Origin: a virus
Lineage: Duplodnaviria; Caudoviricetes
Direction: 5' to 3' (one strand)
Virus record (IMG/VR): IMGVR_UViG_2806310985_000007
Location: 9,811-73,810 of that record
Length of the DNA stretch: 64,000 bases
Shown: one piece after another, positions 3,031 to 16,166 of the stretch
Position numbering within the stretch: the stretch's first letter is position 1
Layout: every line of letters starts with the position of its first letter
Translations under genes and position numbers: made by a program
The notes under the pieces: generated by a model
What the model was told of the DNA's origin: nothing
Databases searched by the model: none
What the model saw: only the letters and a program-made list of their open reading frames with translations

Positions 3031-3120
3031 TTACTCCCTTCCACCGGATAAAATGGCAATACCGCCGATTAAGCACAAACCGGCCATGGTAGAAAACACA
3101 TAAGAAAATAATGCTTTCAT
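3031..3120 (-). CDS. Small hydrophobic peptide (29 aa)
   Basis: MKALFSYVFSTMAGLCLIGGIAILSGGRE preceded by GAAAGGAG; fills the operon gap exactly. Confidence 0.55.
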   Translation of the reverse strand: MKALFSYVFSTMAGLCLIGGIAILSGGRE

Positions 3121-3134
3121 GATAAACGCTCCTT

Positions 3135-3701
3135 TCAATCATAGCTTGAAAAATAATGGCGGCATTCCTGGAACATCGGAACACCGTAATTGCTGTATCC
3201 GCCTGCGGTGAAAAACACGCATTCGTAATTCGTCCGTTCCAGCAGCTCTTCCTTTACAAGCTCTACAAGTTCTTCTTTCACATAACAGCGGTCGACTCTC
3301 CCATTCCACATAGATGTGAACTGATTCGGCTGAAATATAACATCAGTTACATTATCCGGAAAGTGCGAATCGTCGACTCGGTTTAAAATCGTGTCAATTA
3401 CCAGCCTCTGTCCGAGCTCCGTTTCACCTTCTGCTTCCGCCATTGTTACCAGCGCGATAAGTTCAATTTCTTCCTGCGAAATAGGGTACGGCCACTCTTC
3501 CTCAATCTGTTCCGGTTCCTCGGCAGGCGGCGAAGGTTCCGGCACGGTTTCAACAGGGGATATAGATACCGTCGAAGACTCATCGTTATATGTATCCTCG
3601 ACGGGTTTCTCTTTTACCGGGGCTGCGGCTATCCTCGCTATAATAATGAAGCAAAGGATAAGGCTCAGAAGAAACACCGCGCCCTTTAGTATAGTTCGCA
3701 T
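3135..3701 (-). CDS. Cell wall hydrolase, SleB/Hydrolase_2 family
   Basis: Signal/TM segment; motifs AEAEGE, ILNRV, FPDNVTDVIFQPNQFT, HYF. Confidence 0.85.
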   Translation of the reverse strand: MRTILKGAVFLLSLILCFIIIARIAAAPVKEKPVEDTYNDESSTVSISPVETVPEPSPPAEEPEQIEEEWPYPISQEEIELIALVTMAEAEGETELGQRLVIDTILNRVDDSHFPDNVTDVIFQPNQFTSMWNGRVDRCYVKEELVELVKEELLERTNYECVFFTAGGYSNYGVPMFQECRHYFSSYD

Positions 3702-9744: not shown

Positions 9745-9960
9745 TTACAAACCAATGCTCTTTAAAATTTTCATAAGTTCGTCTTTTTCGAGTTCAGCAT
9801 CTACATCCAGATGGACATGTGTCTTTCCGTCGATAACCGTTGCGTTCACCTCATTAAGTTTGAGTTCTACATCATACCCAAACTTCTTTCGGATTAGCAT
9901 AGCTATCAACTTCGACAGAATACCCGTCGTGAATTTCGACCCTATTTTCATTTCGTCCAT
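9745..9960 (-). CDS. Hypothetical protein
   Basis: 71 aa with AAAGGAG SD. Confidence 0.75.
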   Translation of the reverse strand: MDEMKIGSKFTTGILSKLIAMLIRKKFGYDVELKLNEVNATVIDGKTHVHLDVDAELEKDELMKILKSIGL

Positions 9961-11296: not shown

Positions 11297-11510
11297 GAAT
11301 GAAGTCTTTAGCCCTGACTCTCAGCAAGACATACTTCTTTGAAATTACTGCTTCAACCCGCTTTGATAGTTCCAAAAATAAAAAAGGACCATCCGGATCT
11401 GAATTGTCAACTCGAAGTGTTCCGACTGAGAAAAGCCGAAATACGATACCCGTAAAAATGGCACCTACCAAAACGCCGAGAACAAAGATGATTACCAAGT
11501 TCATGCGCAT
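11286..11510 (-). CDS. Small membrane-anchored protein
   Basis: N-terminal TM helix, AAAGGAGG SD. Confidence 0.7.
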   Translation of the reverse strand: MRMNLVIIFVLGVLVGAIFTGIVFRLFSVGTLRVDNSDPDGPFLFLELSKRVEAVISKKYVLLRVRAKDFIPHK

Positions 11511-11613
11511 CCTCCTTTTAAAATGTTTTTTCGAATTTTCAACCCGGGGAATTTTTCAGATATCAATTTAACATGTTTTTCCGTCACCTGCGTACTGAAT
11601 TTTAATCTAGGAT

Positions 11614-11641
11614 AAAAAGAAAGAGCCGTTGTTAGCGGCTC
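11614..11641 (-). terminator. Intrinsic terminator
   Basis: GAGCCG-CTAACAA-CGGCTC + TTTCTTTTT. Confidence 0.75.
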
Positions 11642-11650
11642 AGTCTTTTG

Positions 11651-11935
11651 TTAGGACTTGTGTAATATGTCGATGTAAATTCTTTCTCCGAGTTTCTTGT
11701 CATAGATAATAGATATTTCGAGTTCTCCATCTCGTTCCCATATCCAGTAAGTATTATCATTATATGGATTCCATTTTAAGCCGAACAGCTCATATATCTT
11801 ATTCAGATAAATGTAGCCATAAGCCCTGTAACAATCCATGATGTATATTACCTTGGATTTAGTAAAAAGTTTGTTAAACTCAAAATCCTTTTCCCATGAC
11901 GAACTGCTTTTGTCAAATGTAATTTTAATGTGCAT
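11651..11935 (-). CDS. Short protein resembling the DUF6353 C-terminal domain
   Basis: YGYIYLNKIYELFGL resembles GHLFLNEV..LDL and GVILLNDFYEFLGL. Confidence 0.65.
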   Translation of the reverse strand: MHIKITFDKSSSSWEKDFEFNKLFTKSKVIYIMDCYRAYGYIYLNKIYELFGLKWNPYNDNTYWIWERDGELEISIIYDKKLGERIYIDILHKS

Positions 11936-11962
11936 ATTTTTACACTCCTATTACAATAAATT

Positions 11963-12190
11963 TGGACAGGAAAGCCGGACAGCCAGTCCGGCTTTCCCTC
12001 CATCTCGTGCCTAAGCTACAATGAGAGGAGCAACTGGCTGACCAATCACTCCTTGGGCTTGTATGTCCGTGTGAAAGACTGTTAGCCATCCTCTCGTTGC
12101 AGCGTTCGATTTAAGCAGGTTGAACCACCGGATGTCGGAGAGTTCGTGTCACACAATAGATTGAATCGGCAGCGAGAAAAGATGGATTCC
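11963..12190 (+). ncRNA. IS110 bridge RNA (predicted; ends approximate)
   Basis: 5' hairpin 11969-11997; target loop with CACTCCT and TGAAAG; donor loop with AGCAGGT and AATAGA. Confidence 0.8.
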
Positions 12191-12222
12191 GGTTGCAGAT
12201 TCTTTGTATTGGAGGAATGTGA

Positions 12223-13431
12223 ATGAACTGCGTTGGCATCGATGTTTCCAAGGGTAAGAGCATGATTGCAGTCATGCGGCCCTTCGGAGAGGTAGTGGTT
12301 TCACCCTTTGAAGTACGTCACACCGCCAATGAACTGAGCGAGCTGGCAGGACTGCTCAAAAGCCTGGACGGCGAGACCCGTGTGGTGATGGAATCCACGG
12401 GTAATTACCATGCTCCGGTGGCCTGGCTGCTCCACGACGCGGGCCTTTATGTCTCGGTAGTCAATGCAATGCTGGTGCATGACTACGGAAACAACAGTTT
12501 AAGACGGGCCAAAACCGACAAAAAGGATGCCGTAAAGCTGGCCAACTACGGTCTTGACCACTGGCTCACATTGCCGAGATATATCCCGGAGGAGGATACC
12601 CGACTCATGCTGAAAATCTGCTACCGGCAGTACCAACAGTATTCCAAAGTTCAGACCATGCTGAAGAATAACCTGATCTCCCTGCTGGACACCACCTTCC
12701 CAGACGCAAATCGCTTGTTTACCAGTCCGCCCCGCGCCGATGGCAGCGAGAAGTGGGTGGACTTTGTCGCTACTTTTTGGCATTGCGAGTGCGTTTGTGG
12801 CCGGTCTGAGAAGGCCTTTACTACCCAATACCAGAAGTGGTGCAGAAAGCACGGCTACAATTTCAGCGAGGATAAGGCGCTGGATATTTATGCCTCTGCT
12901 TGCAGACACTTCGGTGTCATACCGAAAACGGATACGGCAAAACTTTTGGTAGAACAGGCCATTTCTCAACTCCAGACAACTTCTTCCGCGTTAGCTGCTC
13001 TCAAACAGGAGATGCAATCCCTGGCAGCTTCTCTGCCGGAGTATCCTGTAGTGATGGGGATGTTTGGTGTTGGCCCAACCCTCGGCCCTCAACTCCTGGC
13101 TGAAATTGGCGATGTACGCCGTTTTCATTCCAAAAAAGCGTTGGTTGCCTTTGCGGGTATTGACGCCCCGCCCTACCAATCCGGTCAAATAGATGTCCGT
13201 AGCCGTAGCATTTCCAAGCGAGGATCTGCCTCACTGCGCAGGACGCTCTTTCTGGTGATGAGCGTCATCCTGCAATGTGCTCCAATAGACGAGCCGGTGT
13301 ACCAGTTCATGGACAAGAAACGCTCTGAAGGCAAGCCATATCGTGTCTACATGATGGCCTCTGCCAACAAGTTCCTGCGCATCTACTACGCTTCTGTGAA
13401 AGCCTACTTGGAATCCCTGGAGCACGACTGA
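12223..13431 (+). CDS. IS110 family DEDD recombinase/transposase (402 aa)
   Basis: GIDVSK, VMESTG, KTDKKDA; C-terminal GVGP..AEIGD..RF, AFAG..P..QSG, SKRG...LR. Confidence 0.95.
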   Translation: MNCVGIDVSKGKSMIAVMRPFGEVVVSPFEVRHTANELSELAGLLKSLDGETRVVMESTGNYHAPVAWLLHDAGLYVSVVNAMLVHDYGNNSLRRAKTDKKDAVKLANYGLDHWLTLPRYIPEEDTRLMLKICYRQYQQYSKVQTMLKNNLISLLDTTFPDANRLFTSPPRADGSEKWVDFVATFWHCECVCGRSEKAFTTQYQKWCRKHGYNFSEDKALDIYASACRHFGVIPKTDTAKLLVEQAISQLQTTSSALAALKQEMQSLAASLPEYPVVMGMFGVGPTLGPQLLAEIGDVRRFHSKKALVAFAGIDAPPYQSGQIDVRSRSISKRGSASLRRTLFLVMSVILQCAPIDEPVYQFMDKKRSEGKPYRVYMMASANKFLRIYYASVKAYLESLEHD

Positions 13432-13562
13432 TTTTTACACTCTATACCATCTGGCTGGCCGCCGTTTTAATTTTGAGATGCTCAGCGGCTTGATTTTGTA
13501 TTGCATTTTTTCGCCTCCCTAAAAATCTGAAATTTCTACTTGACTTTTATTAGCAGGTCTTT

Positions 13563-13587
13563 CATAAAGGAGCTTGTTATTCTTGCG
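13563..13587 (-). promoter_or_regulatory. Repeated 25-nt phage motif, copy 7 (separated from its gene by the IS110)
   Basis: CGCAAGAATAACAAGCTCCTTTATG. Confidence 0.7.
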
Positions 13588-13780
13588 AACTCTCATAAAC
13601 GATTTTCTTCCGCAAATCCGACCACGAAATATAACGGTCTTTGCGACACACTGGACAATAAAACTTATTGACCTTGCCTCCAATGTCTATAATCTCATTG
13701 CTATCCGCTTCCAGTCTGCTCTGACAATTCGGGCAGTTGAAGCGATAGACCTTCTTAACAGCCACGTCTACAATCTTCAC
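13577..13780 (-). CDS. Zinc-ribbon protein
   Basis: CPNC...CPVC. Confidence 0.7.
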   Translation of the reverse strand: MKIVDVAVKKVYRFNCPNCQSRLEADSNEIIDIGGKVNKFYCPVCRKDRYISWSDLRKKIVYESSQE

Positions 13781-13784
13781 GCCA

Positions 13785-14204
13785 TCACCCTCTTTCTTGG
13801 CTGAGCAGCCAGAAGAACCGTCTGTACAAGCTGTAATAAGTATCCTTGCAGCATGGGATGGAAAATTTAATCCTCATGTAATCATAGGAAACTTCTTCCG
13901 TCACACCTTTCAAAATATAACAGGAAAGTTCCTCGTCTGTTTCTTTGGCCATTCGCTCGATCATGTCCATTCGATTCGAGTAAAATAACCTTGCCATCGC
14001 ACATTTAGCAATCGGATCGCTGACATTATTTGTCCTGCTCGGCGGTATCAATTTGGGCCAACTACTCGGAAACCCATCCAGCATGGCATACGATTTTCTC
14101 CATATCGGATACTGTAGACAGAAATGCTTTAGCTCGTAATAGCGATGTTTTTCAATCCAGTATTGGTTCTTCTCGGATATTTCCGGTCTTATCGTTGTGC
14201 TCAT
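13785..14204 (-). CDS. Phage transcriptional regulator, ArpU/RinA-like (tentative)
   Basis: 139 aa; SDP.AK.A, C-terminal HTH-like YY..YRRFFW.L. Confidence 0.5.
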   Translation of the reverse strand: MSTTIRPEISEKNQYWIEKHRYYELKHFCLQYPIWRKSYAMLDGFPSSWPKLIPPSRTNNVSDPIAKCAMARLFYSNRMDMIERMAKETDEELSCYILKGVTEEVSYDYMRIKFSIPCCKDTYYSLYRRFFWLLSQERG

Positions 14205-14891: not shown

Positions 14892-14924
14892 TACTAATAG
14901 CAAATCAATGGAAAGGTGGTCTCT

Positions 14925-16166
14925 ATGCTTATAAAATGTCCGGAGTGCGAATTGCAAGTAAGTGACAAAGCTGTTTCCTGTCCGCATTGCGGATATCCGA
15001 TGCAGCCAAGCGCCAAATCAAGAAAACCTCGAAATAAAAACAACAAACGGCGTCGTTTACCAAACGGATTCGGACAGATCAGCGAGATTAAAAATCGTAA
15101 TCTTCGCAATCCTTTTAGGGCGATGGTGAGCGTAGGAAAATCAGAAAACGGACGGCCAATATGCAAACCTCTGAAGCCGGAATCCTATTTTCCTACCTAC
15201 AATGACGCCTATGCCGCTCTCGTGGAATATAACAAGAACCCATATGATCTTGAGCCGTCTATCACTGTCAAAGAATTGTACGAACGATGGAAACCGGAAT
15301 ACTTGAAAACTCTGAAAAACGAAGCGAGCGGCAGAGCTGTGGAATCGGCTTGGGGGTATTGTTCATCCGTATACGGCATGAGAGTAATTGATGTCAGGGC
15401 ACGTCATATAAAAGGCTGCATGGAAGAAGGAGTATCTGTAGTACGGGGAAAAGAGCAAACCCCAAGTGCGTCAATGAAGAACAAGATTAAATCTCTGTTT
15501 AACTTAATGCTTGATTACGCTTTGGAGTATGAATTGGTAGACCGCAACTACTCGAGAACGTTTAATCTAACCGAGGAAACCATCAAAGAAATTGTAACGG
15601 TAAAGAAAGAACATATACCGTTCACACAAGAAGAGATGGAATTGCTCTGGCAGCATGTAGATGATAAAATGTATGTGGACGTTATCCTGATTCAGTGCTA
15701 TTCCGGATGGAGACCACAGGAAATTGGTTTGCTGGAATTGAAAGATGTGGATCTTGAAAATGGTACATTTAGCGGAGGAATGAAAACAGATGCAGGTATC
15801 AATCGTGTCGTTCCTATCCATTCAAAAATAAGGCACTTGGTAGAACGGCACTATAAAGAGGCTCAGAACATGGGAAGCATATACCTGTTTAATTACGCCA
15901 ATCCAAGCAGCAGGATTAAGAATACGGTCTTGACCTACAATAGATATCAAAAAGCATTTGGGATGATTCGGGATGAACTGAAACTCAATCCGGAGCATAG
16001 ACCCCATGACGGGCGCAAGCACTTTGTCACCATGGCTAAAAAATATGGCGTTGATGAATACGCCATCAAGTATATGGTTGGGCATAAGATTTCTGATATA
16101 ACCGAAAAGGTTTATACGCAGAGAGAATTTGAATGGTTGAAGGACGAAATAGAAAAAATAAAATAG
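14925..16166 (+). CDS. int: Tyrosine integrase with N-terminal zinc ribbon
   Basis: SGWRPQE, KT, HDGRKHF, VGH, VY catalytic residues; RLPNGFG arm-binding region; N-terminal CPEC..CPHC. Confidence 0.95.
   Translation: MLIKCPECELQVSDKAVSCPHCGYPMQPSAKSRKPRNKNNKRRRLPNGFGQISEIKNRNLRNPFRAMVSVGKSENGRPICKPLKPESYFPTYNDAYAALVEYNKNPYDLEPSITVKELYERWKPEYLKTLKNEASGRAVESAWGYCSSVYGMRVIDVRARHIKGCMEEGVSVVRGKEQTPSASMKNKIKSLFNLMLDYALEYELVDRNYSRTFNLTEETIKEIVTVKKEHIPFTQEEMELLWQHVDDKMYVDVILIQCYSGWRPQEIGLLELKDVDLENGTFSGGMKTDAGINRVVPIHSKIRHLVERHYKEAQNMGSIYLFNYANPSSRIKNTVLTYNRYQKAFGMIRDELKLNPEHRPHDGRKHFVTMAKKYGVDEYAIKYMVGHKISDITEKVYTQREFEWLKDEIEKIK

Follow-up and report, generated by a model that had tools for sequence, protein, structure and literature searches.

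A provirus-borne IS110-family element whose left end appears to encode a bridge RNA, with target guides that change together with insertion sites among its relatives

The window analysed here, a stretch of 64,000 nucleotides of the Caudoviricetes record IMGVR_UViG_2806310985_000007 (positions 9,811 to 73,810), contains a leftward operon of small prophage genes interrupted by a mobile element, which raises the question of whether this element is an IS110-family insertion sequence and whether an RNA of its own guided it to this place. The element body spans 1609 bp (11950-13558, plus strand), with terminal sequences ATTACAAT...TTAGCAGGT common to its relatives, and lies between two copies of a CT core dinucleotide, the left one (the target core) at 11948-11949 and the right one at 13559-13560, exactly where an earlier note on this DNA had placed them. 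At the left junction the sequence is TACACTC-CT|ATTAC, at the right junction TAGCAGGT-CT|TTCAT. Relatives with placeable ends start CT|ATTACAAT and finish TTAGCAGGT|CT, the exception being L020 (the loci gathered for comparison carry the prefix L), which starts with ACTACAAT. The empty target that the note had deduced is real: a 613-nt DNA contig (depth 5.6) from the chicken-gut run X3 joins position 11947 straight to 13559 and skips 1611 bp (2 ambiguous bases), i.e. the insertion sequence plus one CT, leaving a single CT in the empty site. Two related phages, L104 and L105, also carry the uninterrupted site with a single CT core; the 94-aa gene at the flank has orthologues in them with 97% and 91% identity, respectively. 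Run X3, a chicken-gut metagenome, held both filled and empty phage sites, with a summed contig depth of ~1000 over the insertion sequence and ~3-6 for the phage flanks.

The window copy is a plain minimal element. Its recombinase gene (12223-13431, plus strand) is the sole long ORF and is preceded by a non-coding left end of 273 nt (11950-12222) and followed by a shorter non-coding right end of 127 nt (13432-13558); the 73.8-kb provirus record holds this single copy. From its sequence, the segment 11950-13558 is very probably an intact IS110-group insertion sequence with a bridge RNA encoded in the left end.

The 402-aa product of the recombinase gene matched DEDD_Tnp_IS110 (PF01548) over residues 4-160 (1.5e-32) and Transposase_20 (PF02371) over residues 276-357 (2.4e-19), and scored 244 bits against a cut-off of 140 with the NCBIfam model NF033542, 'IS110 family RNA-guided transposase'. 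By sequence, its best solved relatives are IS621 (8e-19) and ISCro4 (5e-17), the latter a distant proteobacterial orthologue of 341 aa. The putative catalytic residues D7, E57, D99, D102 and S320-G321 align with D11, E60, D102, D105 and S241-G242 of IS621, and in a set of 26 diverse sequences they are invariant or at least 90% conserved, so that the N-terminal DEDD RuvC-like domain and the C-terminal Tnp domain are both found with their catalytic DEDD and Ser-Gly residues. An AlphaFold2 model (pLDDT 90.2, pTM 0.80) superimposed on IS621 (8wt9) and ISCro4 (9t56) with target-normalised TM scores of 0.78-0.82 (0.80-0.82 for ISCro4), and of 0.75-0.82 over the ten best-ranked IS621 and ISCro4 chains. 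Sequence and model together thus identify the protein as a predicted DEDD/Ser recombinase with the IS621 fold, in spite of an identity to IS621 of only ~21% over the structural alignment. It is longer than IS621 (402 versus 326 aa) because helices at about residues 160-236 are inserted, in the model, between two long helices (125-158 and 237-269). The earlier note was therefore right about the size, but not in treating the larger enzyme as a special feature, which we rejected: all 25 full-length diverse relatives measure 384-425 aa, and 402 aa is the norm for the whole Firmicutes clade. A cluster of cysteines and histidines at residues 186-192 was considered as a zinc site and also rejected, its cysteines lacking conservation among the 26 sequences.

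This protein family is very large. At least 8000 candidates passed an E value of 1e-10 in a collection clustered at 90% identity, in which one cluster alone had 9,903 members, and a 50%-identity library yielded 3712 representatives at 1e-10 or better. Systems of this kind have been known since 2024, the family has already been named 'RNA-guided transposase' by NCBI, and the known picture of IS110 biology is unchanged by the element described here.

The left end folds with a free energy of -104 kcal/mol (z = -5.8), and none of 200 shuffles folded as well. The putative RNA would begin with a 12-bp 5' hairpin (helix 1, 11969-11997) and a closing stem (helix 2) whose 5' arm at 12004-12009 pairs with 12170-12176. 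Inside it lie a target-binding stem-loop (helices 3-5, 12015-12103), made of basal stems, an internal loop and a distal hairpin at 12054-12069, and a donor-binding stem-loop (helices 6-8, 12106-12169), made of a basal stem (12106-12111 with 12164-12169), an internal loop and a distal hairpin at 12122-12145. The first stem-loop, with the stems that the earlier note had quoted, is present in the minimum free energy fold. When this IS621-like structure was tested on 30 distinct left-end sequences, 98.3% of the cells (59 pairs by 30 sequences) were paired and 15 of the 59 pairs had changed on both sides; these values were reached by none of 500 shuffles, and slid controls were only 32-47% paired. 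Support was strongest for the 5' hairpin, with compensatory changes in 7 of its 12 pairs, while the closing stem had a G-C pair replaced by A-U in six sequences and the basal stem of the donor loop, which showed one-sided changes only among the 30 left ends, is weakly supported. Folding the left end, a check that the note itself had suggested, hence gives two stem-loops with internal loops backed by compensatory changes, and points to a left end that forms a 5' hairpin followed by one loop binding the target and another binding the donor. RNAalifold, applied to the naked RNA, favours alternative hairpins that bury both donor guides. A search of positions 11500-14000 against Rfam retrieved no bridge-RNA family, the one match being to an unrelated plastid family at chance level (E 0.99). 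In a 90%-identical copy in the Evtepia phage NatCom_42594 (PV036445.1, L003), a 'hypothetical protein' CDS is annotated over the bridge-RNA region (3104-3277), probably a spurious gene call.

The internal loop of the first stem-loop holds two words that relate to the target. The left target guide (12044-12053) runs in the sense of the left flank plus CT, and its last seven nucleotides, CACTCCT (12047-12053), repeat the left flank and core of this site. The right target guide TGTGAAAG (12070-12077), which includes the TGAAAG (12072-12077) singled out by the earlier note, corresponds to CT and 6 nt of right flank in reverse complement, with 7 of 8 positions matching at this site. The site of the window copy is thus imperfect, the 10-nt left guide mismatching at its three distal positions and the right guide at one of eight; copies with identical guides are mostly found at a perfect site (L024, L026-L030). 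The right guide is followed by a conserved AC (12078-12079) at the handshake-guide position, complementary to GT, the last two bases of the donor's left side, an arrangement that fits the handshake model in the accessible text of PMC11208158.

The second internal loop is complementary to the joined ends of the element, over 7 nt on the left side and 5-6 nt on the right. Its left donor guide, AGCAGGT (12114-12120), repeats the final 7 nt of the right end, as the earlier note had it, and would form seven Watson-Crick pairs followed by a possible wobble and a mismatch, leaving the core unpaired. The right donor guide, AATAG (12155-12159), is the reverse complement of CT+ATT and is followed by AU at the handshake position (12155-12161 in all). 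The note had located AATAGA correctly at 12155-12160, but its reading as the reverse complement of core and right side does not hold for the last A, which pairs with the T that closes the left side of the element's own donor. Covariation in this loop is thin, amounting to one right-side position, because the donor hardly varies across the family: in every case where ACT replaces ATT at the start of the left end (L020, L021, L092), the right donor guide reads AGTAG in place of AATAG. At the variable left-side donor position, L021 agrees with its guide and L020 does not. The 14-nt donor AGCAGGT-CT-ATTAC is surrounded by a 3-bp inverted pair, ATT (13547-13549) and AAT (11955-11957), comparable to the short repeat that has been described in subterminal position for donors of the IS110 group; many relatives have GTT as the left triplet.

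Joining the two ends would also bring together the halves of a sigma-70-like promoter, TTGACT at 13540-13545 (the -35 half, kept in end variants and relatives) and TACAAT at 11952-11957 (the -10 half), both where the earlier note had read them. The resulting TTGACT-17-TACAAT is invariant in 19 of 19 distinct end combinations, and relatives with as little as 54% protein identity still have 17 nt between the two halves. L092 keeps this distance too: its -10 is shifted inwards by 3 nt, and its right end is shorter by 3 nt. Neither the window nor the 106 loci gathered contained a circle junction of right and left ends, and a consensus scan detected no outward promoter towards the downstream phage gene. 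In the RNA runs X21 and X24 the raw reads gave zero coverage over the whole stretch, element and phage alike; the metatranscriptome contig X15 holds the whole insertion sequence in another context, which is not proof of transcription.

How far do the guides account for the choice of site? Both flanks were available for 69 of 90 entries, which represent 62 distinct sites and 21 guide classes. Flanks agreed with their own guides at an average of 5.94/8 positions on the left and 4.53/6 on the right. The sceptical reading, in which an IS110 element owes its choice of site to the protein or to a general preference for DNA resembling ribosome-binding sites and the loop matches come from coincidence or shared composition, draws on the fact that most targets share CTCCT|CTTTC, so that even mismatched guide classes agree with the flanks at 3.75/8 and 2.84/6 positions. 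Yet with one site per class 222 of 294 positions matched, as against a mean of 138.6 and a maximum of 177 after permutation of the class labels, and none of 20,000 permutations reached the observed value. A site's own guide class was the unique best for 27 of the 62 sites and tied for best for 14 more. Right guides that do not resemble ribosome-binding sites match their flanks exactly, at 8 of 8 positions (L013, L014, L094, L095), and the guides of the more distant copies L017, L015, L092 and L021 fit their flanks too. As for coincidence, 20,000 dinucleotide shuffles of the left end produced CACTCCT in 243 cases, TGAAAG in 2981, AGCAGGT in 399 and AATAGA in 1241, and at least two of the four words together in 295, but all four together in none. 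We therefore regard this first reading as very improbable. The test that the earlier note had proposed, covariation of loops with flanks, comes out in its favour for the first loop: both sides of the target loop appear to change together with the insertion sites among the relatives, and this natural variation of the guides suggests that the system would be programmable.

Two other readings concern the kind and the state of the element. An element of the IS1111 group or of the seekRNA type would carry its guide RNA in the right end, and the protein domains are, in the accessible portions of the literature, the same in both groups; here, though, the left end exceeds the right (273 versus 127 nt) and contains both of the structured, covarying loops, and the element ends show no long subterminal inverted repeats. 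For the IS110 group, the available text of PMC11208160 gives as criterion that the left end is the longer one and encodes the RNA, and we consider an IS1111-type element scarcely credible. The copy in the window might alternatively be a genuine bridge-RNA element stranded and inactive in the prophage, through poor expression in the integrated state or through handshake bases that lock the donor onto itself. Such a view has some points on its side, namely a consensus scan upstream of the integrated element that returned one weak promoter match, not above chance, the donor-loop handshake base that pairs with the element's own donor, and the single copy in a provirus record. It is difficult to reconcile with the ORF and both ends being 100% identical to copies in 8 other assemblies, with relatives reaching 22 copies among the kept loci of one genome, and with an insertion sequence depth of ~1000 versus 5.6 for the phage in a gut metagenome, and we hold it to be unlikely.

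The reading that we favour is accordingly an intact IS110-group element of the IS621 type. Protein, RNA architecture, covariation of guides and flanks and the junction promoter together match an IS621-type bridge RNA system, and family membership, predicted fold, catalytic residues and left-end RNA likewise support the earlier proposal of an orthologous RNA-guided recombinase. By analogy with IS621, the element would leave the genome as a circle whose joined ends create a sigma-70-type promoter, from which a bridge RNA of ~210 nt would be transcribed. A recombinase tetramer would hold this RNA while it base-pairs with both the circle junction and a ~14-16 bp target, and the strands would be exchanged at the CT via a phosphoserine intermediate.

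The likeness to IS621 of Escherichia coli (PDB 8wt6, 8wt9) extends to the CT core, the DEDD and serine residues and the fold of RuvC, coiled-coil and Tnp domains. It also extends, following the accessible text of PMC11208160 and PMC11208158, to a left-end RNA with 5' hairpin, target loop and donor loop, to target-loop handshake bases complementary to the donor and to a promoter formed by the joined ends. There are differences as well, again relative to what the available parts of these accounts describe. The right target guide has 8 nt here versus four bases in IS621 (longer right guides were noted in some orthologues by the IS621 authors in PMC11208160 and PMC11208158), and the RNA would be ~210 nt with a covarying closing stem versus 177 nt. 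The left donor guide stops at the core, whereas all four IS621 guides are described as covering it. The donor-loop handshake base of this element pairs with its own donor, an arrangement that lowered recombination of IS621 in the accessible text of PMC11208158. A further comparison, made here by description, is with CazIS110-1 of Caloranaerobacter azorensis, a multi-copy IS110 element whose host belongs to the class Clostridia and for which a TBL/DBL bridge RNA has been predicted; the available part of that work argues for copy-out and direct-transfer pathways (bioRxiv 10.1101/2025.10.25.684509). The element thus adds a naturally validated bridge-RNA orthologue from anaerobic gut Firmicutes, with a longer right target guide and an extra helical module, that could be a starting point for editing tools in Clostridia and a case for studying how handshake bases set efficiency, while the 21 natural guide variants with their sites constitute a free data set on specificity.

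What, then, does the element aim at? Taken on the opposite strand, the empty site looks like a Shine-Dalgarno sequence with the ATG of the gene at 11651-11935 (minus strand) after it; this gene encodes the 94-aa protein without a family match mentioned above, so that the insertion target is the Shine-Dalgarno sequence of this gene. After insertion the gene retains its AGGAG but is severed from the upstream operon. Among relatives, an ORF of at least 50 codons started 6-20 nt from the core on the opposite strand in 57 of 72 distinct left flanks, compared to 415 of 1580 random positions. From these flanks, the guides of the subfamily appear to be tuned to the antisense strand of Shine-Dalgarno sequences, which places the element immediately ahead of genes and pointing away from them. 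Polar effects on operons are to be expected from a clade that lands on ribosome-binding sites. Another member of the IS110 family, IS900 of Mycobacterium avium subsp. paratuberculosis, inserts in one orientation beside ribosome-binding sites. It belongs to a different clade and host, and in the elements described here the AGGAG is left to the gene, the core being located within or upstream of the Shine-Dalgarno sequence; the 'hed' ORF of IS900 depends on host expression signals according to the accessible text of PMC8141618. In the literature that we searched, targeting of ribosome-binding sites by IS110 elements received indirect mention only, and we found nothing linking IS110 to these gut genera. 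The neighbouring small leftward phage genes match PHROG families of unknown function, and an integrase (14916-16166) adjoins. Two of the phage proteins (13577-13780 and 14476-14814, both minus strand) have CxxC pairs typical of zinc ribbons along with their PHROG matches of unknown function, the former with sub-cutoff NCBIfam zinc-ribbon matches besides.

Left end, right end and protein are 100% identical in eight loci from named gut Firmicutes and MAGs (L024-L031), and a single Intestinimonas massiliensis assembly accounts for 22 of the 80 kept genome loci. Identical copies are present in cultured isolates, for instance Anaerotignum lactatifermentans DSM 14214 and Claveliimonas monacensis DSM 108991. 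Relatives also lie on 20 IMG/VR contigs and in one GenBank Evtepia phage, so that phages can be counted among the carriers of such elements; a plasmid collection gave no match to the element. A wider proposition, which we offer tentatively and with more doubt than confidence, is that the bridge RNA of a very abundant IS110 clade of gut Firmicutes has become tuned to antisense Shine-Dalgarno sequences, and that the clade may control strand exchange or its direction differently from IS621. The latter part follows from the handshake bases, which pair with the own donor in this clade and lock the complex in IS621. If true, a landing pad in front of most genes in many hosts would explain identical copies across genera and phages, as well as bursts to more than 20 copies in one genome.

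A few loci deserve a brief description. L024, L027-L031, L085 and L103, from several genera, have a right flank in common, over at least 357-1370 nt where the flank sufficed (L103 has only 23 nt of right flank, all shared), and the left flanks of L029, L085 and L103 are unrelated; this may reflect either a larger mobile element that varies downstream or recombination at the insertion sequence. L018, an IMG/VR contig whose protein is 71% identical, has three stem-loops resembling the target-binding one, located upstream of the element, in the left end and in the right end, within a region that reaches from ~330 nt before the ORF to 260 nt past it, and its left end seems to be without a clear donor loop. 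Among the Intestinimonas massiliensis loci (L039-L096, NZ_LR131147/8) many copies carry a further, incomplete left end or a second right end in tandem. Assembly error is possible in these duplicated ends, since single N bases occur at several of the junctions. The extra partial left end runs from position 1 of the left end to ~133 and stops just past the right target guide (e.g. L046:1089-1226 and L039:2856-2969). These relatives resemble the 'expanded IS110 loci' in the available part of bioRxiv 10.64898/2026.08.14.744561, and their flanks fit the guides when the outermost ends are used.
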